NCBI GenBank assembly: GCA_025934105.1
Contig: JAICYS010000002.1
Span: 2,239 to 66,238 of the forward strand
Direction of reading: 5' to 3'
DNA length: 64,000 bases
Source of the DNA: Myxococcota bacterium
GTDB lineage: Bacteria; Myxococcota_A; Polyangia; Fen-1088
Shown here: positions 8,423 through 26,644 of the stretch, piece by piece
Layout of the letters: each line of letters opens with the position of its first letter
How positions within the stretch are numbered: the first letter of the stretch is position 1
Position numbers and translations under genes: made by a program
Notes under the pieces: model-generated
Told to the model about the DNA's origin: nothing
The model's database searches: none
Seen by the model: the letters and a program-made list of their open reading frames with translations, nothing else

Positions 8423-9589
8423 CTATAGATGAGGGCCGAGGCGCTGCACCAGCCCCGAAACCCGCGGCTCGCCGGGGATGCCGTCGTCGAGCGGGATGAT
8501 CCGGTTTTCGAACCAGCTGCCGGTCACGGCCCGCGGGAGGCGGTTCAGCGCGGCGGTCTCGCGGGCGATGGCGGTTTGCAGCTGGACCCGCCGCTGGCGG
8601 TAGTAGTCCTCCAGCGCCGCCGGGTCCATGCCGCCCAGCGACCGGTCGTATTCGCCGAGCTGGCGGCGGTGGTCGGCCAGGATGGCCTCCAGCTCCGCGC
8701 GTTCGCCGGCGTCGGCGAAGGCGAGGCTGCCGCCCACCACGTGCAGGTCCAGCCGGCCGAGGTGCTTGCCCTCGGCGAACGCGTCCAAAAGGCGCGCGCC
8801 GCCGGCCTTCTCCGGGATCTCGAGGTTGAGCGCGCTGTGACCCAGGACCGCCCAGTCGAGGCCGGCCAGCCCCGCCACCAGGCGGCGCGCCTCGGCGGGC
8901 GGCCCGACGTGGAACAGCCCCACCACCACCTCGGCCCCCTGGCGCCGCAGCGAGGCGATCGCCTGGCGGGCGGCCAGGTCCGCCGGGCCGGCCTCGATCC
9001 CGGCTGCCCGCCAGCTGGCCGCGTCGGCGGGCGCCGGTGGGCTGGTCACCCCGAACACGCCGACCGCGACGCCCGCCAGGCGGAAGATCCGCTCGCTCCC
9101 GAACAGGCGGGCGCCGGTTCGATCGGTGAGGTTGCTGGACAGCACCGGGAGCCGGCGGAGCGCCCGGAGACCCAGCGCCAGATCGCGCTCGCCGGGCGTG
9201 AAGGCGTCCAGGCCGCCGGCCGTGACCGCCGCGGCCAGACGCCGGGCCTGTTCGGCCGATTCTTTGCCGTCGAAGAGGTCGCCGGCGTCGACGACCAGCG
9301 CGGCGTCGGCCTGGGCGCGCGCCCGCGCGACGACCGTGGCGCGCCGGGCCAGGCCGCCCAGCGGGCGGACGCAGTCGCAGGGCGTCGCATGCCCCTCGAT
9401 GTTCGAGCTGTAAAGCAGCGCCAGATCGCGGCCCCGGGGCGGCGGGGGCGGGGGCGGCAGCGCGGCCTGCCCCGCGTCCCTCGGGGGCGGCGCGGACCTC
9501 GCGCTCGGGGGCGGCGCCTGACGGCAGCTCGCCATGGCCGCTGCCAGCAGAGCCAGGCATCCCGTTCCGACTATCCTCGCGAAAGCCAA
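8423..9589 (-). CDS. Lipoprotein, metallophosphoesterase/5'-nucleotidase-like (degenerate motifs)
   Basis: ORF 8423..9589 (388 aa, TTG start). The signal peptide has a lipobox-like AAMASC. LLYSSNIEGH...VVDAGDLF...AVLGHS follows the layout of calcineurin-like/5'-nucleotidase proteins, but the first metal motif is not canonical. The function call is weak. Confidence 0.6.
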   Translation of the reverse strand: MAFARIVGTGCLALLAAAMASCRQAPPPSARSAPPPRDAGQAALPPPPPPPRGRDLALLYSSNIEGHATPCDCVRPLGGLARRATVVARARAQADAALVVDAGDLFDGKESAEQARRLAAAVTAGGLDAFTPGERDLALGLRALRRLPVLSSNLTDRTGARLFGSERIFRLAGVAVGVFGVTSPPAPADAASWRAAGIEAGPADLAARQAIASLRRQGAEVVVGLFHVGPPAEARRLVAGLAGLDWAVLGHSALNLEIPEKAGGARLLDAFAEGKHLGRLDLHVVGGSLAFADAGERAELEAILADHRRQLGEYDRSLGGMDPAALEDYYRQRRVQLQTAIARETAALNRLPRAVTGSWFENRIIPLDDGIPGEPRVSGLVQRLGPHL

Positions 9590-9659
9590 GTCGTCCTTCA
9601 GTCGTGCCGCCAGGCGGCGGCGATCATACTATCTGCCCGAACCCGTCGGACACGACGCC

Positions 9660-10745
9660 ATGGCCGCCCCAAAATCAAAACCGAATCGCGGACGCCACAC
9701 CAATCCGGCCAGAGGGCCGGCGACCTCCGCCGACCACGCCCGTGGGGCAGGCGCAGCTTCGTCCCCGCAGGCTGAGTCCGACGAGCCCGACGAGGAGCTG
9801 CCCGAGGCGGCCGAGGCGGCGCCGGCCGAGCCGATCGACGTCGACGAGGTCGTCCCGCCGCCCCGGCCGGGCGCGCTGGCGCCGCTGCGCGACCCGGTCC
9901 AGCGCTTCTTGGCCGAGGCGCGGCGCTACCAGCGCCTGTCCGACGAAGAAGAGCGGGTGCTGGGGCGCGCCGTCCGCGAGCAGGGCGACATGGGCGCGGC
10001 GCGCAAGCTGGTGGTGCACAACCTGCGGCTGGTCATCAGCATCGCGTACCACTACCGCCGCGCCTGGGCGAACATCCTCGACCTGTTCCAGGAGGGAAGC
10101 GTCGGCTTGATGGAGGCGGTCAAGCGCTGGGAGCCGTCGCTGGGGCCCCGGTTTGGAACCTACGCGGCCTACTGGATTCGCGCCTACGTGCTGCGCTTCC
10201 TCATGACCAACTCGCGGCTGATCCACGTCGGCAACACCCGCGCCGGCCGCAAGCTGTTCTTCCGTCTGGAGAAGGAACGCCAGAAGCTGCTGGCCGCCGG
10301 TTTCGAGCCGACCCCCAAGCTGCTGGCGGCCAAGCTGGAGGTCGACGAGCACGAGCTGGACGAAGTCCGCCAGCACCTGGAGTCGCGCGAGGTCTCCATC
10401 GATCCGCGCGGCACGACCGACGCCGGCGACGAGACCTATGCGCTGTCCGAGCGGATCGCGTCGGGCGGCGATTCGCCGGAGGTCGAGGCCGAGCACGCCG
10501 AGATGGCCGATGCGCTGCACGGCTTCGTCGAGAAGTTCCGGGGCCAGCTCAAAGACGACCGCGAGCGGGCCGTCTGGCAAGAGCACCTGGCCACCGACGA
10601 GCCGGTGGCCCTGGGCGAGCTGGGCGCGCGCTTCGGCGTCTCCAAGCAGCGCATGGGACAGATCGCCGACCAGCTGAAGAAACGGTTCCGCAACGAGATC
10701 GTCGCCAAGTTCGGGCCCGACGTGCGGACCGACTGGCTGGGCTGA
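9660..10745 (+). CDS. rpoH: RpoH-like (group 3) sigma-70 family factor with ~85 aa acidic/Pro-rich N-terminal extension
   Basis: Tracked ORF 9534..10745, with the start moved to ATG 9660. KLVVHNLRLVISIAYHYRR, DLFQEGSVGLMEAVKRWEP, YAAYWIRAYVLRFL and the RpoH-box-like SRLIHVGNTRAGRKLFFRL are present, plus a C-terminal region 4 (LGARFGVSKQRMGQIADQ). Confidence 0.8.
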   Translation: MAAPKSKPNRGRHTNPARGPATSADHARGAGAASSPQAESDEPDEELPEAAEAAPAEPIDVDEVVPPPRPGALAPLRDPVQRFLAEARRYQRLSDEEERVLGRAVREQGDMGAARKLVVHNLRLVISIAYHYRRAWANILDLFQEGSVGLMEAVKRWEPSLGPRFGTYAAYWIRAYVLRFLMTNSRLIHVGNTRAGRKLFFRLEKERQKLLAAGFEPTPKLLAAKLEVDEHELDEVRQHLESREVSIDPRGTTDAGDETYALSERIASGGDSPEVEAEHAEMADALHGFVEKFRGQLKDDRERAVWQEHLATDEPVALGELGARFGVSKQRMGQIADQLKKRFRNEIVAKFGPDVRTDWLG

Positions 10746-11510
10746 TCAGCGCCGGACGCCCCGGACGTAGGCGCGCCAGCAGGTGATGGCGATGGCGCCG
10801 CCGGGCTGTTCCGCCGCCGTGAAGCCGCGGGCGCGCGCCGCCAGGACCTGCCGGCGAACCGCGTCCTTCGCGGCGGCGGGCGTGCCGCGGTCGAACCATT
10901 CGTCGAAATCCAGCGTGAACGGCTCTTCCCGCAGCTCGAGATCCGTGAGGCCGGCCGCCGCGAACAGGTCCAGCAAGGCGCCCGGCGTGAGGTTGCGCGT
11001 GTGCGTGCGGTCGCGGGCCTGCTCGATGGCCTGGTGTGCCGCGGCCGCCGCGCCATCGGGGTCGGTGGTGTGGTCGCACGCGACCAGGACCCCGCCGGGG
11101 TCGAGGTGCGCGACCTGCCGTCGGACGAACGCGGCGGGGTCTTCCAGGTGGTGGATCACGTAACGGGAGATGGCGCCGCCGAACCGCTCGCCGGCCGGCA
11201 GGTCGAACACCGAGGCCCGGCGAAAGCTGGCGCGAGCGGCGAACCGGGCGCAGCGCGCCTCGGCGCGGCGGATCATCTCGGGCGACAAGTCGACGCCCAC
11301 CAGCGTGAACCCGGCGGCGGCGAAGGCCTCCGACACCAGGCCCGGGCCGCATCCCGCGTCCAGCAGGCGGGCCCCGGCGGGGAAAGCCGCGAACGCCACC
11401 AGCCGCGCCAGCATGGCCGGGTCGCTCTGCACGGGCGCTGCCTCGAATCGTCCCGCCTGCCCGTCGAAGGCCGCGGCCAGGTCCCGATCGTGGGTGTCCA
11501 CGGCCGCCAT
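10746..11510 (-). CDS. Class I SAM-dependent methyltransferase
   Basis: Tracked ORF 10746..11567, with the start moved to ATG 11510 (MAAVDTHDRD). It has the SAM motif I LLDAGCGPGLVSE, plus DLSPEMI and ISRYVIHHL. Confidence 0.8.
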   Translation of the reverse strand: MAAVDTHDRDLAAAFDGQAGRFEAAPVQSDPAMLARLVAFAAFPAGARLLDAGCGPGLVSEAFAAAGFTLVGVDLSPEMIRRAEARCARFAARASFRRASVFDLPAGERFGGAISRYVIHHLEDPAAFVRRQVAHLDPGGVLVACDHTTDPDGAAAAAHQAIEQARDRTHTRNLTPGALLDLFAAAGLTDLELREEPFTLDFDEWFDRGTPAAAKDAVRRQVLAARARGFTAAEQPGGAIAITCWRAYVRGVRR

Positions 11511-11557
11511 TATGGCGCGTGGTGAATCGACGCGCCCGACCTGATAGAAACGTGCCG

Positions 11558-12682
11558 ATGGCTGCACGCGGTCGGCCGGCCGGCGCCGAGCTGCAAAGAG
11601 CCGCGGCGCTGCGTCTGGCCGCGCAGCGCCTGGCGCGGCGCGAGCATCGCGATCCCGGCGCGCTGGTGGCGTGGATGGGCGCCATGCAGGCGCAGGATCC
11701 GGCGGCCGCGCGCTGGGCGGTGGGCATGCGGCTTTCCGGAAGCTCCACGACCGAGGCGTCCGTCCAGCGCGCCCTCGACGACGGGCTGGTCATCCGCACG
11801 CATGCGATGCGCTGGACCTGGCAGTTGGTGGCCGCCGCCGACCTGCACTGGATTGTTCCCCTGGTGGCCCCCGAGACCATCCGGCGGGCGGCGCGGCGGT
11901 TCCGCGAGCTGGGCCTCGACGAGGCGGCGGTCCGGCGCAGCCGGGCCGTCTTCGAGCGGGCGCTGCGCGACGGGGCGCACCTGACCCGCGACGAGCTGCG
12001 CGCGGCGCTGGAGGCCGCCGGGATCTCGACCGCCGACACCCGCTTGTCGCATCTGCTGGGCCGAGCCGAGCTGGAAGGCCTGATCTGCAGCGGGGCCATC
12101 CGCGGCAAGGCGCCCACCTTCGCGCTGTGGGACGCGCGCGTGCGTCGGGCCGACAGCCCCTGGCCGCGCGAGCGCGCGTTGGCCGAACTGGCCCGCCGGT
12201 ATTTCCGCAGCCGCGGCCCGGCGACCCTGGCCGACTTCACCTGGTGGTCGGGCCTTCCGCCGGCGCAGGCGCGGGTCGCCCTGGACAGCGTCCGGTCCGA
12301 GCTGGCGAGGGAGGCGTTCGACGGACGAGACACCTGGCGCGACCCCGACCAGCCCGCCGCCACCCCCGCCGCGCTGGCCGGCGCGTACCTGGCGCCACCG
12401 TTCGACGAGCTCTTGATCGCCTACAAGGATCGCGGCGCGGTGCTGGACCCCCGGCACGCGCCCCGGCTGAACGCGGGCGGCGGGATGATCGCGGGCATCG
12501 TCGTGCTGGGCGGCCGGGTGGTCGCCGCCTGGCGCCGCACGCTGGGCCGCGGGCAGGTCTCGTTGGCCGTCGACCCGTTCAGCGCGACGACGAAATCGGA
12601 CCGCGCCCTGATTGCCGCGGCCGCGCAGCGCTACGCACGTTTCCTGCAGCTCGACTTGTCCCTGGCCGTCCGCGAGCGCTGA
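11558..12682 (+). CDS. Winged-helix DNA-binding protein, YcaQ/AlkZ-like (DUF1006) family
   Basis: Tracked ORF 11519..12682. The start is either GTG 11519 or ATG 11558. LVAWMGAMQAQD, LVIRTHAMRWTWQLV, LAELARRYFRSRGPATLADFTWWSGL and PPFDELLIAYKDR match my memory of the crosslink-repair glycosylase-like family. Confidence 0.7.
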   Translation: MAARGRPAGAELQRAAALRLAAQRLARREHRDPGALVAWMGAMQAQDPAAARWAVGMRLSGSSTTEASVQRALDDGLVIRTHAMRWTWQLVAAADLHWIVPLVAPETIRRAARRFRELGLDEAAVRRSRAVFERALRDGAHLTRDELRAALEAAGISTADTRLSHLLGRAELEGLICSGAIRGKAPTFALWDARVRRADSPWPRERALAELARRYFRSRGPATLADFTWWSGLPPAQARVALDSVRSELAREAFDGRDTWRDPDQPAATPAALAGAYLAPPFDELLIAYKDRGAVLDPRHAPRLNAGGGMIAGIVVLGGRVVAAWRRTLGRGQVSLAVDPFSATTKSDRALIAAAAQRYARFLQLDLSLAVRER

Positions 12683-12913
12683 CCCGGCTGCGCGCCGAAC
12701 AGCTCGCTCCGCCGAAGCCAAGGCGGAGGTCTACGCGCACGAGCCGCCAGCACCTGGACCCGCGCGCCCGATGGATTGGACCCAACTGGCGCGCCCGCAG
12801 CCGCAGCCGCACCCGAAAGCAAATGCCATCTTGGAAATTCGCCCGCGGCGAGGAGCGGCGAAATGGAGTGGTGTCGAGCATGCGGAGAGAGCTTAGACCC
12901 TGAGCTAGTAAGC

Positions 12914-13062: not shown

Positions 13063-13177
13063 GAAATCAGACCGCGCCCTGATTGCCGCGGGCGCGCAGC
13101 GATACGCACGTTTCCTGCTGCCCGATTTGTCCTGGGCGTTCGCGAGCGCTGGCCCGGATGCGAGCCGAAGAGCTTGC
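13063..13177 (+). repeat. Degenerate second copy of the 3' end of the YcaQ/AlkZ-like gene (gene-tail relic)
   Basis: 13063..13177 aligns without gaps to 12592..12706, the last ~30 codons, the stop and ~24 nt beyond of gene 11558..12682. The offset is 471 bp, with roughly one mismatch per 7 nt. Encoded KSDRALIAAAAQRYARFLQLDLSLAVRER compares with KSDRALIAAGAQRYARFLLPDLSWAFASAG, and TGA has become TGG in the copy. Confidence 0.85.
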
Positions 13178-13304: not shown

Positions 13305-13799
13305 GTGAAAAGGGTGAGTGATTGGACGATGGAGGGCGGCGGAGGCAGAACGTCTCGGGTCGACCGCGCCACCGCGCATCGCTGGAATCGAGCGCTGCTC
13401 AGCATCTATTACTACGGGCGCCGGCACCAGGCGCCCCTGTCCCGGCACCCGCCGCCCGCGCAGGTCCTGCCACTCGAGGCCGCCATCCAGGTGGTCGTCG
13501 GCTCACGCGCGCTCGGCGTCTTGCGCCTGGCTCTGGCGGACCTTTGCCGGACCCGCGCCGCGCAGCCATCCACGCGGATCGAGGTCCTCATGCGCGAGCT
13601 CGTCGCGGCCTACGGCCGGCTCGTGGGTGCCCCGGGTTGGGCCGCCCCCGACATCGTCGAGACGTTCGAGAGGATTTTTCGCGACGACGCCACGCCGGAT
13701 CCCGAAGAAGCCTACCAGCAGGCCATCCGGCGCATGAAAGAGCTCGAGAGTGGGACGGTATTGCAACTCATCAGCTTTACCGTGCAGACGGCGTCATGA
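13305..13799 (+). CDS. Hypothetical protein (cluster ORF P1)
   Basis: ORF 13305..13799 (GTG start; ATG 13329 is also possible). GGAGG-like ggggaggggga lies upstream. The frame is GC3-rich with a balanced composition (LMRELVAAYGRLVGAPGWAAPDIVETFERIFRDDATPDPEEAYQQAIRRMKELE), while the two alternative frames are Arg/Pro junk. The stop overlaps the next start (ATGA at 13796). Confidence 0.55.
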   Translation: MKRVSDWTMEGGGGRTSRVDRATAHRWNRALLSIYYYGRRHQAPLSRHPPPAQVLPLEAAIQVVVGSRALGVLRLALADLCRTRAAQPSTRIEVLMRELVAAYGRLVGAPGWAAPDIVETFERIFRDDATPDPEEAYQQAIRRMKELESGTVLQLISFTVQTAS

Positions 13800-14404
13800 G
13801 GCCGGCCAGCTACAGAGGAACGGCGAGCTTCGCGGGCTCGGTCGCGTCGTTGAGCCGAGCCCTCAACCCGCTCCACTGGCACGAGGATGCGCCGTATTTG
13901 TGGTTTGAGACGTACCTGATGGCTCCGGCCGGGTCACGCGGAGCCGCCGAAACGGGAGCGCCGCCTCACGGGACGAGCCCGGACACGGGCTTGCCCTGGT
14001 TCCGAGCGGAAGCGCCGGCGCAGGCGCCTGCGCGGGACTGTTGGACGCCGACGCAGCTCTTCGAAGCTGTCGTCTTCGACCACTACCTGTATCGGAACGT
14101 TCTGCTGACGGATCGGGTCAACCAACCGGACAAGATTTCGCTGCATTACAGCCAGGTCGAGTGTCTGGAGACCGTCGCCCGGCGCCCGTGCGACGGCGGA
14201 ATCGACCTGGATGTCGGCGAAGGGACAGCCACGCGGGAGCCGGACGGGACCGTCCGGTTGGTCGTCACGAAGACGATCCGGTTCACGCAACCCCAGGCCG
14301 CAACGGCCGAAGTGAATTTACTGGCGCACGTGATGGTTCCTCTCTGCTTCGACTTTTGGTTGCACGCGGGACTGTTCGGAACTGGAGGTTCGACCCATGG
14401 TTGA
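13796..14404 (+). CDS. Hypothetical protein, SRPBCC/START-like paralogue A (cluster ORF P2)
   Basis: Same frame as tracked ORF 13322..14404, with the start at ATG 13796. It is homologous to the C-terminal half of ORF 16204..17184: LNPLHWHEDAPYLWF / ADPRNWKHAAPDFFT, NVLL..ISLHYSQVECLET..DGGIDLDVGEG...RLVVTKTIRFTQP / NVLR..ISYTYRLHTCLQS..SGGLDVDEGHY...RIEASKSVRFTAP. The fold assignment is by eye only. Confidence 0.65.
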   Translation: MRPASYRGTASFAGSVASLSRALNPLHWHEDAPYLWFETYLMAPAGSRGAAETGAPPHGTSPDTGLPWFRAEAPAQAPARDCWTPTQLFEAVVFDHYLYRNVLLTDRVNQPDKISLHYSQVECLETVARRPCDGGIDLDVGEGTATREPDGTVRLVVTKTIRFTQPQAATAEVNLLAHVMVPLCFDFWLHAGLFGTGGSTHG

Positions 14405-14669
14405 CGACAGCAGCACCTCCATGATCGATGCGCGGCGCACACTGCAGGACTGCCAGGAGCGGTGGGACAGGTTCAGGCAGGAAGCCGGGCAGAACGTCGG
14501 TGACTACGTGAACGACAATTTCGACTACCTGCAGAGCCTCCTCGACGACAAGTCGGGCCCGCGCCAATGGGTCAAGGATGGTTTCGCCGTCTGGATTCAC
14601 GGGTACACCACCGCGCGCAATTTGTGGCGGTCTGCGTACCGGGCCGTCTTTCCCGGCGACGAACGGTGA
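14397..14669 (+). CDS. Hypothetical small helical Trp-containing protein (cluster ORF P3, helical module only)
   Basis: ORF 14397..14669 (90 aa) overlaps the previous stop by 8 nt and is GC3-rich. QWVKDGFAVWIHGYTTARNLWRSAY resembles the helical N-terminal modules of ORFs 15581..16207 and 14675..15262. Confidence 0.6.
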   Translation: MVDDSSTSMIDARRTLQDCQERWDRFRQEAGQNVGDYVNDNFDYLQSLLDDKSGPRQWVKDGFAVWIHGYTTARNLWRSAYRAVFPGDER

Positions 14670-14674
14670 CCCGG

Positions 14675-15262
14675 ATGGCGGCGCGGGGAACTCGGAATGT
14701 GCGAGACACGGCCTCCGACGAGCTCGAACGCGTTCGAACGAAGGTGATGACGTTGGTGTTCGCCTGTGCGGACGCCGTCCAGGTCCAGACACGATCGGCG
14801 CGCGCGCTGGCCGAGCGCCTTCTCGACCCGGCCACGCCGGCGACAGCGTCGGGACCGGCGTTCGTGGCGCTCTGGATCCAGTCGCTGCGAAGCACGTTCG
14901 ACCTCTGCCGGCAGATCGGCCGGGTGGTGACCGACTCGCCCGACAGACCGGGTCCCCATGGCGACGTCGGGGCGGGCCAGATCCGATTCTTCGTGCCGGT
15001 CGGCGCCGAAGCCACCGATCCCTTGCCCCTGGGCGTGCCGGTCGGCCAGGTCGGCGCCATCCACGTCGCCGGTCCCGTCGGCGGCGCCGTTCTTCCGGCC
15101 GCCAACGTCTACGTCAGCGTGTCATCGACGGGCGGGCAGGTGCAGGTGGCCCTCATCGGCCTGGATTCGATCCGAGAATTTCAGGAACTGGGAAGCCGGT
15201 GCGGCGCTCGTCTCCACCTTCCGGACGGCCGGACATTGGCCATCGTCGCCGCCCGAACTTGA
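14675..15262 (+). CDS. Hypothetical protein, helical module + beta-rich module (cluster ORF P4)
   Basis: Same frame as tracked ORF 14567..15262, with the start at ATG 14675, 5 nt after the previous stop. The N-terminal helical part is FVALWIQSLRSTFDLCRQIGRVV. The C-terminal beta-rich part is IRFFVPVGAEA...VYVSVSSTGGQVQVALIGL...GARLHLPDGRTLAIVA. Confidence 0.6.
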   Translation: MAARGTRNVRDTASDELERVRTKVMTLVFACADAVQVQTRSARALAERLLDPATPATASGPAFVALWIQSLRSTFDLCRQIGRVVTDSPDRPGPHGDVGAGQIRFFVPVGAEATDPLPLGVPVGQVGAIHVAGPVGGAVLPAANVYVSVSSTGGQVQVALIGLDSIREFQELGSRCGARLHLPDGRTLAIVAART

Positions 15263-15615
15263 CAGGGGGCGAAACAACCGTTGCCTCGGCCGTTCGATCC
15301 GAAGTGGAAATCGTTATTCGAAGCCTCGACCACCTCGGCATCGAGCAGCTGTTCGTCCGGGCCCACACCGGCCCATTCCCCGGGACGACGGCGCGAAAGC
15401 TGCAGACAGCCCTGGCCAACCTGACTGCGCTGGCGGTCGGCAGCGCGCGTCCGGTGCCGCCGGCCAGCGGCCGCTACGAGCTGGAGATTCGCGAACGCCG
15501 GGGCGGCCGGCCCCTGTCGCTGACGGTCGTCCACGGCGACCTCACCGGCCCCTCCGTGGCGGTGCGCGAAATCATCCGTCTCATTGCGCTGGGGGCCGCC
15601 CCGACCGGCGATTAG
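15259..15615 (+). CDS. Hypothetical small protein, beta-rich module only (cluster ORF P5); start uncertain
   Basis: This is the tail of tracked ORF 14578..15615. There is no ATG. Candidate starts are TTG 15259 (TTGA overlap with the previous stop) or GTG 15304. VEIVIRSLDHLGIEQLFVRAH...PPASGRYELEIRERRGGRPLSLTVVHGD carries the same G-x-Y-x-strand ending seen in P6 and P11. Confidence 0.45.
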   Translation: MTGGETTVASAVRSEVEIVIRSLDHLGIEQLFVRAHTGPFPGTTARKLQTALANLTALAVGSARPVPPASGRYELEIRERRGGRPLSLTVVHGDLTGPSVAVREIIRLIALGAAPTGD

Positions 15616-16207
15616 GCCCTACGCGTTCCGGCTTTTGTCGGACCTGGACCAGAACGATTGCCAGGGGGGCTGTCAGCGCAGGAATCGTGACCAGGCCGAT
15701 GTAGTCGCCCTCGGCGGGGGGCGGGGCGTCCAGCGTCAGACGAACCCGCAGGGTTCGCCCGCGGTTGACCAGCTTGGCGACGTAGCTGCCCTCGGTGATG
15801 ACGTCGTTTCCGCCCACCCGCTGAATGGTGCTTTTGTGAATGGGGGTGCTCTGGGAGTCGTAGGCGCGCGACAGTTGGACGTCGTACGGCGCAGGCGACG
15901 TTTGGCCAGGCGAGACCGAGAAGATGGCCCAGCCCGGGCGCGCGTCCTCGGCCAACGGAGCTCGCCAGACATCCATCGCCAGGACGTAGTAGGACTGCCA
16001 CAGGCTGGCCGCGGCGGCCGCGACGTCCGTGAACCGCGCAGTGCCCCCGATGGCCCGTCCCCAGAGATCGTTCAGCGTGTCGACCGCGGCCAGAACCGCC
16101 TGAGACGAAGAGGCGACCAGGTTCCGCGCGCTCTCGAGACCGGGGAAGTTCGAGCTGGTCTGACCGTCTGGCTCGGGGACGTGGACCTCTTTGTCGTTCT
16201 CGTTCAT
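15581..16207 (-). CDS. Hypothetical protein, helical module + beta-sandwich-like module (cluster ORF P6)
   Basis: Same frame as tracked ORF 15581..16618, with the start at ATG 16207 (MNENDKEVHV). That start overlaps the stop of ORF 16204..17184 (ATGA). The helical part is DTLNDLWGRAIGG...ASLWQSYYVLAMDVWRAPL. The beta part is WAIFSVSPGQTS...TLRVRLTLDAPPPAEGDYIGLVTIPALTAPLAIVLVQV. Confidence 0.65.
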   Translation of the reverse strand: MNENDKEVHVPEPDGQTSSNFPGLESARNLVASSSQAVLAAVDTLNDLWGRAIGGTARFTDVAAAAASLWQSYYVLAMDVWRAPLAEDARPGWAIFSVSPGQTSPAPYDVQLSRAYDSQSTPIHKSTIQRVGGNDVITEGSYVAKLVNRGRTLRVRLTLDAPPPAEGDYIGLVTIPALTAPLAIVLVQVRQKPERVGPNRRSGRPPAQ

Positions 16208-19452: not shown

Positions 19453-21615
19453 ATGGCCCGGCAATCGATGGATGGGCGGCCAATCAGGGTGGCGGTTCTG
19501 GGGGGCGGGTGCGCGGCCATTGCGGCGGCGTTCGAGCTCAGTCGCCCCCAGCATCGGGGCCGGTTCGAGATCACCGTTTACCAGATGGGCTGGCGGCTCG
19601 GGGGCAAGGGTGCCTCCGGGCGTGGTCCCCACGATCGGATCGAAGAGCACGGCCTGCACCTCTGGATGGGATTTTACGAGAATGCGTTTCGCCTGATGCG
19701 CGAATGTTACGCGGAGCTGGGACGCGATCGCGCGCGCTGCCGGATTGCCGATTGGCGCGACGCTTTCGTCCCCGCCGAGATGAACGTCGTCGCCGATCTG
19801 TCGGCGCGTGCTGGCTGGATGCCTTGGAAAGTGCTGTTTCCACCGACGCCGGGCAATCCAGGCGATCCGCCGGCCGAAAGCCGCCCCTGGACGGTTGGCG
19901 CCTACCTGGCCCGTTGCGTGTCGTTGTTGCGCACGTTGGTCGAATCGCTGCCCGAGCCGAGCCGCCGTGGCGCGGGCGGCGCCGAGGATGACGGAGGCGC
20001 TCCCGGCGCCGCTTCGCTTCCTCTGCTGGAACGGATTGCGCAATTGATGTGCTACGGGGAGCTCGCGACGGTGACGGCGCTGCTGGAAGCGTTGCGGCTG
20101 CTGGAGGGCGGGCTGGCCATCGCCCCCGTGCAAGCCCCCGGCGCGCTGCCGGCTCTGGTGGCGGCCGTTTCCGGCGCGGCGCACCGACACCTGGAAGCGC
20201 TGCTGGAAAAGGACGAAGGAACGCGGCGTCTGTGGGAGATCGCCGACCTCGTCCTGGCCGTTCTGCGCGGCGCCGTCCGCTTCGGGTTGCTGACGGACGC
20301 GCGCGGGTTCGACGCCATCAACGAATATGACTGCCGCGAGTGGCTGTTGCTCAACGGGGCCTCGCAACGTTCCGTCAACAGCGCCTTCGTGCGCGCGCTT
20401 TACGACCTGGCGTTCGCGTACGAAGACGGGGATGTCGGCCGCCCCCGAATCGCCGCCGGGCAGGCGTTGCGGGGAGCGGTGCGAGCCTTCTTCACGTACC
20501 GGGGCTCCTTCTTCTGGAAGATGACGTCCGGGATGGGCGACGTCGTGTTCGCGCCACTTTACGAGGTCCTGAAGAAGCGGGGCGTCCGGTTCGAGTTCTT
20601 CCATCGCCTGGAAAACTTGCGCCTGGCCCCGGCGCAGGCCGGGCAGACACCGCACGTCGCCGCCATCGAGTTCGACGTGCAGGCGGTCCCGCTCGAGGGC
20701 GAGTATCGGCCGCTGGTCGACGTGCGCGGATTGCCCTGCTGGCCGTCCCACCCCCTGTTTTCGCAGCTGGCCAACGGGAAGACTCCCGAGCGCGAACGTT
20801 GGGACTTCGAATGCCCCTGGGATCGCCGGCGGATCGGGACCAAGACGCTCGAGGTCGAACGCGACTTCGACTTCGCCGTCCTGGGGGTAGGGATTGGCGC
20901 CGTCCCCCTGGTGGCCCGCGAGCTGGTCGATCGTGAGGCGCGCTGGCAGGCGATGGTCCGGCACGTGAAGTCGGTCCCCACGCAGGCCTTCCAGGTGTGG
21001 CTGTCGGCGGACACGGGCGAGCTGGGCTGGCCGCACGGGACCGCCAACCTCTCGGGCTTCGTCGAGCCGTTCGACACCTGGGCAGACATGAGCCACCTCG
21101 TCGCCGAAGAGAGCTTCCCGCGTCCACCCAGGTCGATCGCCTACTTTTGCAGCGTGCTGCCCGACCAGCCGCAAACCGGGGACCTCGACCAGGCCCGCGC
21201 GCGCCAACGGGAGGTGAGGCGCAACGCCGTCACGTTCCTCGACCACCACGTGGGCGAGATCTGGCCGGGCGCCGAACGGGCGGGCGGCGGCTTCCGCTGG
21301 GAGCTGCTGGTCGCCGAACCCAGCGCCGGCGCGAGCGGGCGGCCGGTGCGCGGCCATCGGCAGTTCGATCAGCAATACTGGCGGGCCAACGTCAATCCGT
21401 CGGATCGATATTCGCTGGCCCTTCCGGGAACGCTCCGGTATCGGATCTCGCCGTTGGATCGGACCTTCGACAACCTGACCATCGCCGGCGACTGGACAGA
21501 CTGCGGATTCAACGAAGGGTGCGTCGAAGCCGCCGTGATGTCGGGCCGCCTGGCCGCCCATGCCTTGTCCCAATCACCTCCGCTGGCCGACATCGTCGGT
21601 TACGACCACCCATGA
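19453..21615 (+). CDS. FAD/NAD(P)-binding oxidoreductase, amine-oxidase/phytoene-desaturase superfamily (720 aa)
   Basis: ORF 19453..21615, with the ATG immediately after the previous TAA. It has the N-terminal dinucleotide fold RVAVLGGGCAAIAAAFELS and the C-terminal signature LTIAGDWTDCGFNEGCVEAAVMSGRLAAHAL, which is typical of amine-oxidase/desaturase-type flavoproteins. Confidence 0.8.
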   Translation: MARQSMDGRPIRVAVLGGGCAAIAAAFELSRPQHRGRFEITVYQMGWRLGGKGASGRGPHDRIEEHGLHLWMGFYENAFRLMRECYAELGRDRARCRIADWRDAFVPAEMNVVADLSARAGWMPWKVLFPPTPGNPGDPPAESRPWTVGAYLARCVSLLRTLVESLPEPSRRGAGGAEDDGGAPGAASLPLLERIAQLMCYGELATVTALLEALRLLEGGLAIAPVQAPGALPALVAAVSGAAHRHLEALLEKDEGTRRLWEIADLVLAVLRGAVRFGLLTDARGFDAINEYDCREWLLLNGASQRSVNSAFVRALYDLAFAYEDGDVGRPRIAAGQALRGAVRAFFTYRGSFFWKMTSGMGDVVFAPLYEVLKKRGVRFEFFHRLENLRLAPAQAGQTPHVAAIEFDVQAVPLEGEYRPLVDVRGLPCWPSHPLFSQLANGKTPERERWDFECPWDRRRIGTKTLEVERDFDFAVLGVGIGAVPLVARELVDREARWQAMVRHVKSVPTQAFQVWLSADTGELGWPHGTANLSGFVEPFDTWADMSHLVAEESFPRPPRSIAYFCSVLPDQPQTGDLDQARARQREVRRNAVTFLDHHVGEIWPGAERAGGGFRWELLVAEPSAGASGRPVRGHRQFDQQYWRANVNPSDRYSLALPGTLRYRISPLDRTFDNLTIAGDWTDCGFNEGCVEAAVMSGRLAAHALSQSPPLADIVGYDHP

Positions 21616-22400
21616 CGCGCGCCCGCCGTCCCAAGCTCCCGCGCAGCGAGCCGCATCGCTCGTTCGCGGGCGTCTTTTCGCCCGCATCGCCCCCGAACGG
21701 AAGCGGGGCGGGCCGGGGCAAGCCGGGCGGGTCGCCGCGGCCGTCCGCGCGCAAGACGCCGGGCGTGTCGGGTGGCGTGGCGGTCGGTTACCAGGTCATC
21801 GAGGACTACATCCGGCAAGGGCAGCAGTTCGCCCGGAAGTTCTGGTCCGCCGCCCCCGGCGCGCCGGCCAACGCGCGCGACAACATCGCCGACCGGATGG
21901 TCCGGAGCGCGTCGGATCTGGCCTCGCTCTTCTCTGAGTTCCTGCAGACCGTGACGGTGCCCGCCGACCGGCGTCCGCCCGGAAGCGCGCCGATCCCGGA
22001 CTTCGGCCTGCCCAAGCCCGGCCAACCCCGGGCCGCTCGCCCGGAGCGGCCGGCGAATCCCGCACCGAACGGGGGCGCCTCCGCCGTTGCCGCGGCCGCT
22101 CCGGCCATCTGGATCGACGTTCGGAGCCGCCGGCCCGTCGAGGTCTCCGTCGATTTGCGGCCCGGTCCCCCGGCGCTTCGTCTGATTGCGCACGATCTTC
22201 GCGCCGCCGGGGTCACCAGCGCGCGCGTCAAAGCCCCGCGAATCGAGGTTCGCCCCAATGAACACCGGGTGATCGTGCGGCTTCAGATCCGAGATGGGCA
22301 GCCGGCCGGTGTCTACAGCGGCACGATCCTGGACGGAGGGACGAACCTCCCCCGCGGGACCGTCGCCGTTCGGATCGACGGCAAGGGCCGGCCCGCATGA
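21612..22400 (+). CDS. Hypothetical protein, disordered N-terminus + helical module + Pro-rich linker + beta-sandwich-like module (cluster ORF P11)
   Basis: Same frame as tracked ORF 20997..22400, with the start at ATG 21612 (ATGA overlap with the previous stop). The helical part is YQVIEDYIRQGQQFARKFW...ASDLASLFSEFLQTV. The beta part is AIWIDVRSRRPVEVSVDL...RVIVRLQIRDGQPAGVYSGTILDGGTNLPRGTVAVRI. The layout matches P6. Confidence 0.65.
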   Translation: MTRARRPKLPRSEPHRSFAGVFSPASPPNGSGAGRGKPGGSPRPSARKTPGVSGGVAVGYQVIEDYIRQGQQFARKFWSAAPGAPANARDNIADRMVRSASDLASLFSEFLQTVTVPADRRPPGSAPIPDFGLPKPGQPRAARPERPANPAPNGGASAVAAAAPAIWIDVRSRRPVEVSVDLRPGPPALRLIAHDLRAAGVTSARVKAPRIEVRPNEHRVIVRLQIRDGQPAGVYSGTILDGGTNLPRGTVAVRIDGKGRPA

Positions 22401-23443: not shown

Positions 23444-26400
23444 TCAACCCCCGGCTTCGAGGCGGGCGATGCTGGCCGCCGTCCGGGCTTCCAGAACCCG
23501 CGCGCCGTCGGAGCGCGCGATGCGCAGCGCCCGCCGAAGCGCCTTGGCCGCGCCGGCGCGGTCGCCGCTGCGGGCCAAGAGCTCGCCCTCGAGCCGCAAG
23601 AGCTCAGGGACCTGGTGACGGCCCAGGTTGTCGCGCGTGATGGCCAGCGCCTCGCGCACGGTCAGCAACCCGGACGGCAAGTCGCCGTTCTGCAACTGAA
23701 TCTCGCCCAAATACGACAGGTAATAGGGCAGGATCACCGAGGCGCCGATCGCCCGCAAGATGTCCAGCCCCTGATTGAGCATGGCCACCGCGCGGCGGTC
23801 GCCGGCGAAGGCATTGGCCCACCCGGAGATGCACAATCCGACTGCGAGCCAGAAAGGAAAGCCGTGCTCCGTGCAGCTGGCGATGACGCCTGAGGCCCGC
23901 TGGGCAGCCAAAGCGGGCTGCCCGAGATCGTGCGCGAAGGCTGCGCCATAGGCGGCCGCCATCGCGCGCACGTAAGGCCGGTCGATCCTTTCGGCCAGAC
24001 CGGTCGCCTCCGCCCAGGTCTCCTCGCAGGCCGCGCCGCGATCGCGGTAGGCGTCGCTCCAGGCCTCCAGGAGGTGCGGGTACAGGATCCCCTCGTACGC
24101 GTAGTCGCGGACCAGCCGATCGTATTGCTCGCGCGGGCGCTCGAGATCGCAGTGCGCGCGGCCGGCGCGCGCGTCGTCCGCCGCGCGCCCGAAATCGCCG
24201 TAACAGAACGCGCGGTTCGAGAGGCAGGCGTGCGCGATCAAAAGGCTGTCGCGATCTCCGGAGGTCCCGGTCATGCGGGTGAAGACGGCTCCCAGTCGCG
24301 CGGTGCCTTCGACGTTTCCGCGCACCAGGTCGACCGCCCACAGCCCAAACAGCACCCGCATCGGCACGTCTCCGTAGCGCTCGCACAGCGCGCCGGCGCG
24401 CGCGTACGTCTGCTCGACCTCCTGGGACGAAAAGCCGCGCGTCGAGATCAGCGCCAGGCCCAACCCACTCAGGAGATCGATCTCTCGGCGATCGCGCGCC
24501 TCCGACTCGGGCAGGGTGGCCAGCAATTCGAGCGCCCGGGTGAACGAGCTGATGGCTTCGGCGAACGCCGACCGCGCGACGGCGCGCTGTCCGGCCACCG
24601 CCCATTGCGTGACGGCTTCCAGAAACAGGCCCGCTGCCGTGTAGTGCTGGGCCAAGGTTTCGGGCTGGCTGGCTGCCAGGTCGGGAAACCGCTCGTTCAG
24701 CGTCTCGACGATCCGCAGATGAACCTGCTGCCGCGTGGTACGCAACAAAAGGTCGTAGGCAGCATCTCGAACCAGAGCGTGTTTGAAGATGTACGTCTCC
24801 TGTCCGCCGCTCACGCGCCGGAACAGCAGCTCGGCGGCGATCAGTTGATTCAACCGCCGGCGCAAATCCGGCTCCGGCATTCCGGCCACCGCCAACAGAA
24901 GCTCGAACGGGAAGGCCCGGCCCAGCGCCGCCGCCATCTGGGCCACGGCCTTGCTCGATCCCATGCGGTCGAGGCGCGAGGTCAACGAGTCTTGAACGGT
25001 CGCCGGGATGGCGATGGGACGCAACTGGAGGCCCGCGTCGGTGAGGGCGGCAGGTTCGGCCTCCAGCACGGCCCGCGTGATCTCCTCGCCGAAGAGCGGG
25101 ATGCCGTCCGCCTTGTCCAGGATCTCGTTCACGACGCCGGGGTCGAGCCCGGCCGGCGCCAGGTGGTCGATGATGCTGCGCATCTCGGCCGGCCCCAGCC
25201 TTTCGATGAGGAGCTGGCGGACACCGTCGTGCATCCGCGGAAGCGTGAACTCCGGCCGATGCGTCATGGCGATCATGGCCTGATGGCCGGGCACCCGTTC
25301 GGCCATCAATTTCATCAGCTCGAGGGTGGACGGGTCGGCCCATTGGACATCCTCGACCACGAACAGCACCGGCCGCTCGCGGGCGGTCGCCAGCAACCAG
25401 GTCACCAGCATCTCGAAGGTAGCTTGCCGCTGTTTCTGAGAGGTGGTGAGGGGATTGCCCGCGGGCTCGACGTCCAGCGAGAAGAGTGATTTCAGCAGCG
25501 GACGCACTTTGTCGAACGACATGCCCGCACGCTGCACCTCGGACTCGAGCCGGCGGAGTTTTTCGTCGGCGGACATGTCGCTCGAAAAGTTCAGGCGCCG
25601 CTCGAGCATGGCGACGATCGGGTGCAAAGACGTGCGCTGCAGGTGCTGCGAACAGAAACAGGTGATGGTGACGGCCCGGTCGGCCTCCAATTGATCGCGC
25701 AGGTTGCGAAGCTGGCGCGACTTCCCGATGCCCGGTTCTCCGCGAATGGCGACCACCGTTCCCCGCCCGGCCTCGGCCTCCTTCCAGAGCTCGCTCAGGA
25801 AGGCCGACTCCCGGTCGCGCCCCACCAGCGGCGCACCGGACCGGCTGGCCGAGCGTTCGGCCAGCACGTGGTCGTGCCCGCGCTGCTGATCGTCGGCGCG
25901 GTAGAGGTGGATCGGCGAGGACAGCCCTTTGAGATTTTGGGCGCCCAGGTCCTGAAACCGAAAGCTCGTGCCGGCCAGCTGGCGCGTGGCCTCGCTGACC
26001 ACGACCTCGTTCGGAGCGGCGGCCGACATGACCCGCGCCGCCAGGTTCGGGGTTTCGCCGACGGCGCGATATTCGTTTCGGGCCGGGTCTCCGACGTAGC
26101 CCATGACGACCGGACCGGTGTGAACGCCGATGCGAACCTGAAGGGGAGCCCGGAGCAGCCAATCCACTGAAGGCGTCTTCAGCGCCTTCACGATCTCCAG
26201 CCCGGCGAGGATCGCCATCTCCGGCATCCACTCATGGCCGAAGGGATACCCGAAGTAGGCCAAGAGTCCGTCGCCGAGGTATTGCGCAACGTGTCCGTCG
26301 TGCTTGCGAATGACCTCGGAACAGACGGTCTGGTAGTCACGCAGGAGCTCGCGGAAGTCTTCTGGGTCGAGCCGCTCGGACAGCGCGGTCGCGCCCACCA

Positions 26401-26644
26401 CGTCACAGAAGAGGACGGTGAGCCGCCGGCGCTCGCCGCGCGTGGGTGGCGTCGTCTCGTCGCGCAGCGAATGCCCGCAGTGGCTGCAGAAGCGCGCCTC
26501 GACGCTGTTCCCGGAACCGCACCGCGCGCAGACTGCCTTCAGCTCAGTGTCGCACGCGATGCACGACAGTGCGTCGTCATCGTTCTCTGTCGTACAACTC
26601 TTGCAATGCAGAGTGACCGCCTCCCCGTACCGCCAGCGAGGCAT
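23444..26644 (-). CDS. Zinc-ribbon + class III adenylate/guanylate cyclase + AAA/STAND ATPase + TPR regulator (1066 aa)
   Basis: ORF 23444..26644. There are N-terminal CxxC pairs (CKSC...CIAC...CARC...CSHC). The cyclase domain has LFCDVVGAT, YLGDGLLAYFG, RIGVHTGPVVMG and GETPNLAARV. A Walker A motif (GEPGIGKS) follows, and the long C-terminal half is helical and TPR-like. Confidence 0.85.
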   Translation of the reverse strand: MPRWRYGEAVTLHCKSCTTENDDDALSCIACDTELKAVCARCGSGNSVEARFCSHCGHSLRDETTPPTRGERRRLTVLFCDVVGATALSERLDPEDFRELLRDYQTVCSEVIRKHDGHVAQYLGDGLLAYFGYPFGHEWMPEMAILAGLEIVKALKTPSVDWLLRAPLQVRIGVHTGPVVMGYVGDPARNEYRAVGETPNLAARVMSAAAPNEVVVSEATRQLAGTSFRFQDLGAQNLKGLSSPIHLYRADDQQRGHDHVLAERSASRSGAPLVGRDRESAFLSELWKEAEAGRGTVVAIRGEPGIGKSRQLRNLRDQLEADRAVTITCFCSQHLQRTSLHPIVAMLERRLNFSSDMSADEKLRRLESEVQRAGMSFDKVRPLLKSLFSLDVEPAGNPLTTSQKQRQATFEMLVTWLLATARERPVLFVVEDVQWADPSTLELMKLMAERVPGHQAMIAMTHRPEFTLPRMHDGVRQLLIERLGPAEMRSIIDHLAPAGLDPGVVNEILDKADGIPLFGEEITRAVLEAEPAALTDAGLQLRPIAIPATVQDSLTSRLDRMGSSKAVAQMAAALGRAFPFELLLAVAGMPEPDLRRRLNQLIAAELLFRRVSGGQETYIFKHALVRDAAYDLLLRTTRQQVHLRIVETLNERFPDLAASQPETLAQHYTAAGLFLEAVTQWAVAGQRAVARSAFAEAISSFTRALELLATLPESEARDRREIDLLSGLGLALISTRGFSSQEVEQTYARAGALCERYGDVPMRVLFGLWAVDLVRGNVEGTARLGAVFTRMTGTSGDRDSLLIAHACLSNRAFCYGDFGRAADDARAGRAHCDLERPREQYDRLVRDYAYEGILYPHLLEAWSDAYRDRGAACEETWAEATGLAERIDRPYVRAMAAAYGAAFAHDLGQPALAAQRASGVIASCTEHGFPFWLAVGLCISGWANAFAGDRRAVAMLNQGLDILRAIGASVILPYYLSYLGEIQLQNGDLPSGLLTVREALAITRDNLGRHQVPELLRLEGELLARSGDRAGAAKALRRALRIARSDGARVLEARTAASIARLEAGG

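Follow-up and report, generated by a model that had tools for sequence, protein, structure and literature searches.

The immunoglobulin-like (Ig-like) domain of RhoGDI binds and shields an isoprenoid (prenyl) group. In heteromeric prenyl diphosphate synthases of the HepS/HexA type, the gene for the trans-prenyl diphosphate synthase is directly preceded by, and coupled to, one for a small subunit without catalytic function, and the orange carotenoid protein is an isoprenoid-associated protein of two modules that exists beside single-module paralogues, the stand-alone HCP and CTDH. RhoGDI itself starts with a flexible N-terminal arm of ∼70 residues, which forms a helix-loop-helix and is followed by the Ig-like β-sandwich (PMC2906322). 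Here we analysed 64,000 nucleotides (nt) of DNA from a Myxococcota bacterium (Polyangia; Fen-1088; GenBank assembly GCA_025934105.1, contig JAICYS010000002.1, positions 2,239 to 66,238 of the forward strand), a stretch that we call the window and whose numbering is used throughout. Four of its proteins, P3, P4, P6 and P11 (Table 1), form one unannotated superfamily, and their homology is solid. We refer to them as hairpin-Ig proteins, after the predicted form of the full-length members. P11 is encoded between a flavoprotein gene (P10) and a polyprenyl diphosphate synthase gene (P12), and this three-gene core recurs in many phyla. A preliminary description of the same DNA had read P3, P4, P5, P6 and P11 as fused and stand-alone versions of a helical and a β-rich module, and had proposed that they build a multi-subunit assembly such as a coat, scaffold or adaptor.

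Profile comparisons unite P3, P4, P6 and P11

Pairwise BLASTP among the five proteins gave best expectation values (E) of only 0.3–5. A word-based search of 5.8 billion proteins returned 11 relatives of P6 and three of P4, and every named database homologue was a 'hypothetical protein'. When the narrow alignment of the 11 P6 sequences was compared with P11 in hhalign, the P-value (P) was ∼0.03 and the match covered only the final 35–47 residues; the same narrow alignment was also used for pattern scans of contig collections, both genomic and metagenomic, and these yielded zero relatives. From the window alone, the resemblance is indistinguishable from chance.

We widened the families from contigs encoding P6 homologues and from 80 P10-anchored loci of species-representative genomes, running iterated jackhmmer profile searches over all open reading frames (ORFs) of the collected loci. 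With these family alignments, the HHalign comparison that had been suggested as a check was significant for P3, P4, P6 and P11. Specifically, P3 aligned with residues 8–86 of P4 (hhalign probability 95%, E 3.7e-8, 79 columns), in keeping with its description as a stand-alone helical module. P4 and P6 aligned collinearly across both domains (90–95%, E 1.6e-6 to 6.5e-8, 152–154 columns), and their C-terminal domains (C-domains) did so on their own (93.7%, P 2e-7). The C-domains of P6 and P11 were likewise matched (91–95%, E 4e-8 to 1e-6, 71–85 columns), and a weaker match joined P4 and P11 (52–70%, E 4e-5 to 1.5e-4, 88–151 columns). For the hairpin region, a merged alignment of P3 and the N-terminal part of P4 reached 45% with the P6 hairpin (P 2.2e-4, 56 columns) and 55% with that of P11 (P 1.2e-4, 57 columns); P3 alone gave a weak match to P6 (E 0.0014) and scored 0.2% against P11 (E 0.28, 29 columns).

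The same relationships emerged from the iterated searches, in which the P3 and P4 profiles cross-matched (E 1e-10 to 1e-14) and the P4 profile matched P6-type ORFs directly (E ∼1e-5). In one Polyangia locus (L054) the N-termini of the P3-type and P4-type genes are alike by eye, SRPSDWVRDGFALWIRCYG versus SSPENWIRNGVASWIRCYD. The motifs quoted in the preliminary description are present in the sequences, and hhalign places 'GSRCGARL...TLAIVA' of P4, 'GDYIGLV...PLAIVLV' of P6 and 'GVYSGTI...RGTVAVRI' of P11 in register. Within the P6 family alignment (A5), residues P91 and Y169 are invariant and G167, G171 and P181 near-invariant.

Could these similarities be an artefact of the 70% GC composition, which enriches proteins in Ala, Arg, Gly and Pro, combined with the generic strand pattern of β-sandwiches? 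The non-significant BLASTP values, the early hhalign result with the narrow alignment and the thinness of some alignments would fit this explanation, as would the frequent occurrence of G-x-Y-x-G-like 'tyrosine corner' strands in unrelated Ig-like domains. Controls with reversed alignment columns, which have the same composition, reached a best P of only 0.0045, versus 1e-6 to 8e-9 for the real pairs. Cross comparisons of helical with β regions gave P ≥ 0.47, and ∼45 comparisons with unrelated families of the same loci (P1b, P2, P5, P7, P8, P10 and P12) gave P ≥ 0.065. Moreover, the alignments run collinearly over both domains, the bridging L054 sequence displays the P3–P4 kinship without any statistics, and the independent structure predictions for P6 and P11 agree in architecture. 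The controls make chance similarity unlikely, and we regard a purely compositional origin of the family as very improbable.

Collectively, the profile–profile results and the controls relate P3, P4, P6 and P11 to one another and exclude P5. The helical module had been assigned to P3, P4, P6 and P11; this is solid for P3 with P4, while P4 and P6 align collinearly through the hairpin, P3 and P6 match weakly, and for P11 the kinship is no more than suggestive. Similarly, the β module had been assigned to P4, P5, P6 and P11, of which all except P5 retain it.

Predicted architecture of the hairpin-Ig proteins

Structures were modelled for P6 and P11, and P3 and P4 were placed in the family by homology. 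AlphaFold2, run on the P6 alignment, predicted helices at residues 22–53 and 59–81 of P6 and then seven strands within residues 92–189 (predicted local distance difference test, pLDDT, ∼80). When the P6 model was compared with the PDB using Foldseek, the best 50 matches were all Ig-like domains (E 3e-4 to 4e-3, probability up to 1.0); TM-scores were low (0.2–0.5) and no specific family was matched. The P11 model, built on a 25-sequence alignment, has helices at residues 52–79 and 86–114 behind a disordered N-terminus (hairpin 52–114, nt 21765–21953), a disordered Pro-rich linker and a β-sandwich of eight strands at residues 165–255 (nt 22104–22376; pLDDT ∼90 or more). Weak Foldseek matches of P11 include PD-1, MD-1/MD-2 and NEAT domains. 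We count the P11 sandwich as Ig-like because its C-domain is homologous to that of P6.

The hairpins and Ig-like sandwich that the preliminary description had asked structure prediction to confirm are thus found in both models. The full-length form is predicted to be a two-helix hairpin joined to an Ig-like β-sandwich of ∼95 residues that ends in the G-x-Y-x-G strand, which recalls the tyrosine corner of Ig-like folds; judged by its alignment, P3 appears to be a hairpin-only copy. The N-terminal sequences are without signal peptide, pointing to cytoplasmic proteins. No PDB sequence relatives of the hairpin-Ig proteins were found in single-protein or family-profile searches, and P1b to P7, P9 and P11 have zero Pfam or NCBIfam model matches. 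As had been proposed, the hairpin-Ig proteins do not look like enzymes: they carry no enzymatic signature and have no sequence relatives in Pfam, NCBIfam or the PDB.

P11 belongs to a conserved three-gene core

The preliminary description had also asked whether the two modules go together with genes for polyprenyl synthases or flavoproteins elsewhere, and in other genomes P11 does. Among the 80 analysed loci, drawn from 429 relatives of P10 in species-representative genomes, 76 carry a P11-type ORF between P10 and P12. The remaining four have no P11-type match; three of them are also without a P12 match, and two end just past P10. Spacing is tight: at most 150 nt separate P11 from P10 (stop to start) in 71 of 78 cases, and P12 from P11 in 68 of 72. 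The hosts include Myxococcota, Binatia, Acidobacteriota, Nitrospirota, Gammaproteobacteria including Methylococcaceae, Gemmatimonadota and Alphaproteobacteria, with strains of Archangium, Minicystis, Nannocystis and Methylotetracoccus as cultivated carriers of the core. In most genomes P11 is the only hairpin-Ig member.

A HMMER search of 1.84 billion cluster representatives detected 1,522 P11-type clusters (at 50% identity) with E ≤ 1e-3 and 1,199 with E ≤ 1e-10. The best 150 matches listed are mostly 230–300 amino acids (aa) long and share the same end-to-end architecture. With ∼1,500 such clusters, the analysis defines a sizeable family that is without a Pfam or NCBIfam model, together with its domain architecture, and it highlights a flavoprotein – hairpin-Ig protein – polyprenyl synthase core that is conserved across many phyla. 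No description of the P10–P11–P12 operon was found in a literature search for this gene combination, and the core appears to be uncharacterised. Nor was a paper found that describes the hairpin-Ig family, with its hairpin fusion, the split and the truncated paralogues and the constant position within a widespread isoprenoid-related operon; the Ig-like fold class as such is ordinary.

Conservation in P11 peaks at three places: the N-terminal peptide, helix 1 (G-Y-R-V-I-E-E-Y-x-R-Q-G-Q) and the last strands (G-x-Y-x-G ... P-x-G). The N-terminal peptide (residues 1–23, nt 21612–21680) is predicted to be disordered, and its motif, R-x-x-R-P-x-L-x-R-x-x-P-x-R-x-(F/W)-x-x-x-F, is among the best conserved of the family; it looks like a short docking peptide.

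Two diverged cassettes pair hairpin-Ig genes with a partner

Each hairpin-Ig gene of the window is placed right behind one particular partner gene, and in most instances the stop and start codons of neighbours overlap; the orders are P10→P11→P12, P7→P6 and P2→P3→P4. The partners of P6 and of P3–P4 proved to be related. P2 matched the C-terminal two-thirds of P7 (hhalign 100%, P 3.5e-54; BLASTP E 0.003, the sole notable BLASTP pair among the window proteins), and P1b matched the N-terminal region of P7 (97.7%, P 1.4e-12). Likewise, the jackhmmer profile of P1b matched the N-termini of P7-type ORFs in four loci (L047, L048, L034 and L080; E 1e-19 to 1e-31), and a single ORF comprises both the P1b-like and the P2-like part in Binatia and in some loci of Polyangia. 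On these alignments we consider P1b and P2 to be a split paralogue of P7. Because P1b plus P2 equals P7, the locus holds two diverged cassettes, [P7][P6] on the minus strand and [P1b][P2][P3][P4] on the plus strand, the latter apparently with its first gene split and with an additional, hairpin-only copy, P3. That the two cassettes are equivalent is supported by locus L047, where the gene right after a fused P7-type gene is of the P4 type.

The picture of fission and fusion given in the preliminary description therefore needs correcting, since the clear gene fission is that of P1b and P2 relative to P7, which it had not noticed. The window has a fused, a split and a truncated copy among its paralogues, and this set is a compact natural experiment in domain fission.

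P6-type proteins were found by iterated profile searches in ∼20 further loci, always adjoining a P7-type gene, and the order P7-type then P6-type is kept in 23 of 24 loci. In Myxococcota the pair diverges from P8, whereas in Binatia it follows P12 in convergent orientation; that it occupies two different positions relative to the core speaks for a functional link between P7 and P6 and against chance adjacency. No Pfam or PDB relatives of P7 were found. Kinship of P7 and P2 with P10, P8 or P12 was rejected by hhalign comparison, and the suspicion from a sequence pattern that both are lipid binders of the START/SRPBCC kind is not claimed, as family matches were lacking.

The arrangement of the genes bears on the proposal that these proteins are building blocks of a coat or scaffold, which might for example enclose a compartment or an isoprenoid lipid body. 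A single locus does encode multiple paralogous two-domain proteins that do not look like enzymes, Ig-like domains and helical hairpins often serve as assembly modules, and the best NCBIfam model for P12 is a family 2 encapsulin cargo polyprenyl transferase (NF041169), though at 174 bits versus a cut-off of 450 and with IdsA and geranylgeranyl diphosphate synthase scoring about equally, all below cut-off. Against this, no encapsulin, microcompartment or shell relative was present among the Pfam, NCBIfam and PDB matches of the scanned proteins, and no encapsulin shell gene among the genes examined. Most genomes carry P11 alone, placed between two enzymes, and the paralogues follow a one-partner-one-adaptor pattern rather than forming a shell-gene cluster. 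With one specific partner gene upstream of each member, the gene pattern is better explained by pairwise partner or adaptor subunits, and we consider a coat or scaffold quite improbable.

A possible role in isoprenoid handling

From the homology, the predicted folds and the conserved gene order we infer that the hairpin-Ig proteins form complexes with their partners and bind lipid, and we lean, with some reserve, towards reading this superfamily as non-catalytic partner subunits that handle an isoprenoid. Each would join the product of its upstream gene as a non-catalytic subunit in stoichiometric amounts and would dock on this partner via the conserved hairpin, aided in P11 by the N-terminal peptide. 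P12 would make a hydrophobic isoprenoid, which the β-sandwich may hold or hand on and which P10 would process, presumably by oxidation. By analogy to RhoGDI, the helix-loop-helix arm and the Ig-like domain would grip the partner and shield the prenyl group. If P11 is indeed a lipid-handling or tethering subunit, the operon would represent a new bacterial coupling of isoprenoid chain synthesis to downstream oxidation, and P11 would offer a handle for finding the product of the pathway.

A bolder version of this proposal would make the superfamily a new class of bacterial isoprenoid escorts, functionally analogous to RhoGDI and PDE-delta, with P11 as the obligatory third subunit of a widespread pathway of flavoprotein and polyprenyl synthase under cyclic AMP (cAMP) regulation (> 400 species, at least seven phyla), and with P7–P6 and P2–P3–P4 as lineage-specific extra carrier pairs. 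In this full form we think it unlikely.

Several results weigh against a role in isoprenoid handling. The proposed hand-over of an isoprenoid is deduced from gene neighbourhood. Among the Foldseek matches of the P6 and P11 models, RhoGDI, PDE-delta and ML-domain proteins either do not occur or do not reach significance, and the P11 β domain has no significant neighbour in the PDB (best E 0.26). AlphaFold2 predicts the P6 hairpin at low confidence (pLDDT ∼50), and the homology of the P11 hairpin to that of P3, P4 and P6 is no more than suggestive. Finally, the family alignments of P3, P4 and P5 are thin, each comprising 4–6 sequences with an effective number of sequences (Neff) of 1.4–2.7.

Regulatory genes and the position of P5

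Genes of cAMP signalling accompany the operon, which suggests that the pathway is cAMP-controlled. The set comprises an adenylate-cyclase/AAA_16/TPR protein, Crp-type regulators, a class-II cAMP phosphodiesterase and Ser/Thr kinases with a cyclic nucleotide monophosphate (cNMP)-binding domain; its members are found in the window (23444–26644, minus strand), in L051 (3511–5505 and 19084–22188) and in L001, L004 and L054. The cyclase-AAA-TPR gene adjoins P12 in the window, belongs to a cluster found in 62 related loci and has the same architecture in L051. (It was flagged by all-against-all clustering of stop-to-stop ORFs, which is noisy in high-GC DNA because of shadow ORFs and was used for this neighbour only.) One Nitrospirales locus contains genes for Crp, a class-II cAMP phosphodiesterase, a FadL-type porin and another flavoprotein.

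In close relatives of the window (L001, 3279–4764; L004, 10569–12092; and the JGI contig of P0007), the interval from P6 to P5 is occupied by genes for an ECF sigma factor and Crp. Relatives also have a gene for a cNMP-binding Ser/Thr kinase beside the P1b–P5 genes, or directly beside P5 where P1b–P4 are absent. In the window, P5 and P6 overlap tail-to-tail by 35 nt and are without this insert. P5 had been described as the β module alone. Its family matched neither the P4, P6 and P11 families nor their C-domains (hhalign P 0.12–0.44; 0.12–0.7 over all comparisons with hairpin-Ig members and ≥ 0.065 against every family), and by this measure P5 is unrelated to the hairpin-Ig superfamily. Because L001 has P5 without P1b–P4, P5 seems to be tied to the regulators and not to the hairpin-Ig genes. 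Its start is probably GTG 15304 rather than position 15259, and its orthologues are 103 aa long.

These neighbours raise the alternative that the hairpin-Ig proteins are signalling or regulatory adaptors, which would link the cAMP, ECF-sigma or Ser/Thr-kinase genes to the enzymes. The cyclase gene next to P12, the Nitrospirales regulators and the sigma factor, Crp and kinase genes around P5 and P6 could all be read in this way, and the conserved short N-terminal peptide of P11 with its long disordered linker is typical of adaptors. However, P11 is translationally coupled to two enzymes and to no regulator, and the regulators differ between lineages whereas P10–P11–P12 is constant. Nor did Pfam or NCBIfam reveal a DNA-binding, anti-sigma or nucleotide-binding signature. 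We therefore judge a regulatory adaptor improbable and retain isoprenoid-handling partner subunits as the working model.

Layout of the locus

All five ORFs of the preliminary description were found where it had placed them, in a window of ∼70% GC, and their codon-position GC is coding-like (GC3 0.81–0.85, GC2 0.44–0.62). Gene calls made independently on a closely related contig (L086) have matching sizes, 164, 203, 90, 194, 103, 208 and 327 aa for P1b, P2, P3, P4, P5, P6 and P7 respectively. Within each run, adjacent genes overlap by 4–8 nt or are separated by ≤ 5 nt. Coordinates are compiled in Table 1.

Table 1. Genes of the hairpin-Ig locus in window coordinates; domain boundaries are predicted.
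Gene	Position	Strand	Product and remarks
P1b	13305..13799	+	164 aa; stop overlaps the P2 start (ATGA)
P2	13796..14404	+	202 aa; start ATG 13796; 203 aa in the L086 orthologue
P3	14397..14669	+	90 aa; hairpin module only; 8-nt overlap with the P2 end
P4	14675..15262	+	195 aa; hairpin ∼residues 11–88 (nt 14705–14938); β domain ∼99–193 (nt 14969–15253); orthologues P0013 and P0014
P5	15304..15615	+	103 aa from the probable start GTG 15304; conserved small protein outside the hairpin-Ig family
P6	15581..16207	-	208 aa; hairpin 22–81 (nt 15965–16144); Ig-like β-sandwich 92–189 (nt 15641–15934); start overlaps the P7 stop by 4 nt
P7	16204..17184	-	326 aa; partner gene upstream of P6
P8	17333..18391	+	saccharopine-dehydrogenase-like NAD(P)-binding protein; Pfam Sacchrp_dh_NADP, E 2.4e-11
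P9	18388..19452	+	354 aa; no Pfam match; present in a subset of loci
P10	19453..21615	+	720 aa; FAD/NAD(P)-binding flavoprotein with amine-oxidase-like C-terminus; Pfam NAD_binding_8 and Amino_oxidase; weak NCBIfam-scan match of the N-terminus to HpnE
P11	21612..22400	+	262 aa; 4-nt overlaps with P10 and with P12
P12	22397..23437	+	short/medium-chain polyprenyl diphosphate synthase; Pfam polyprenyl_synt in orthologues
Adenylate-cyclase/AAA_16/TPR regulator	23444..26644	-	convergent with P12; partial match to NCBIfam TOMM_kin_cyc, E 1.9e-148

P8-type genes are frequent neighbours of the core and occur in 39 related loci. In P9, two conserved flanks enclose a central stretch of ∼80 residues rich in Gly and Ala (GFAAGGAVGAALGGALGSLTGAFGGGLAGL...), and P9-type genes occur in ∼20–25 related loci (25 jackhmmer matches); in the Nitrospirales locus, an 833-aa protein with an acetoacetate-decarboxylase-like segment follows P12 in place of P9.

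Upstream of the locus, the region 9534–12682 encodes an RpoH-like sigma factor of 403 aa with a long N-terminal extension, a class I S-adenosylmethionine (SAM) methyltransferase (minus strand) and a 387-aa protein without NCBIfam match. A direct repeat of ∼115 nt (85–89% identity) links positions 12592–12707 and 13063–13177, such that the 3′ end of the gene at 11519–12682 is duplicated ∼470 nt downstream, right before the P1b–P5 operon. This repeat may be the scar of a rearrangement or an insertion.

Comparison with known systems

The likeness of the hairpin-Ig proteins to generic Ig-like domains (V-set/I-set type) is that of fold, as the model of the P6 C-domain matches Ig-like domains only in the PDB. 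They differ in that the sandwich is fused to a helical hairpin, is apparently cytoplasmic and reaches the low TM-scores given above. ML-domain proteins (MD-1/MD-2, Npc2) and NEAT domains, small ligand-binding β-sandwiches that appear among the weak Foldseek matches of P11, are matched insignificantly (E 0.57–1.6, probability ≤ 0.14) and share no sequence similarity.

Two further systems resemble the locus in organisation. As in the orange carotenoid protein and its single-module paralogues, a two-module protein coexists with a single-module copy; the evolutionary pattern is alike, the folds are unrelated, and no carotenoid genes were identified at the hairpin-Ig locus. Like HepS/HexA-type subunits, P11 is non-catalytic, and its gene is directly upstream of and coupled to that of the synthase, P12. 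Those subunits, however, are entirely helical, with a fold related to that of the synthase; P11 had no Pfam or NCBIfam match to HepS/HexA, and its hhalign comparison with P12 gave P 0.35.

The closest parallel in architecture is RhoGDI, to which PDE-delta and UNC119, binders of prenyl and acyl groups, are related. No match to the Pfam families Rho_GDI or GMP_PDE_delta was obtained at E ≤ 1 for P3, P4, P6 or P11, and neither RhoGDI nor PDE-delta is among the best 50 Foldseek PDB matches of the P6 or the P11 model. RhoGDI is a eukaryotic protein whose ligands are prenylated GTPases, and these are not known in the context of hairpin-Ig proteins. The resemblance is to be taken as an analogy and a lead. 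In domain order and domain sizes RhoGDI nevertheless matches the hairpin-Ig family, a family that is itself genetically tied to a polyprenyl synthase.

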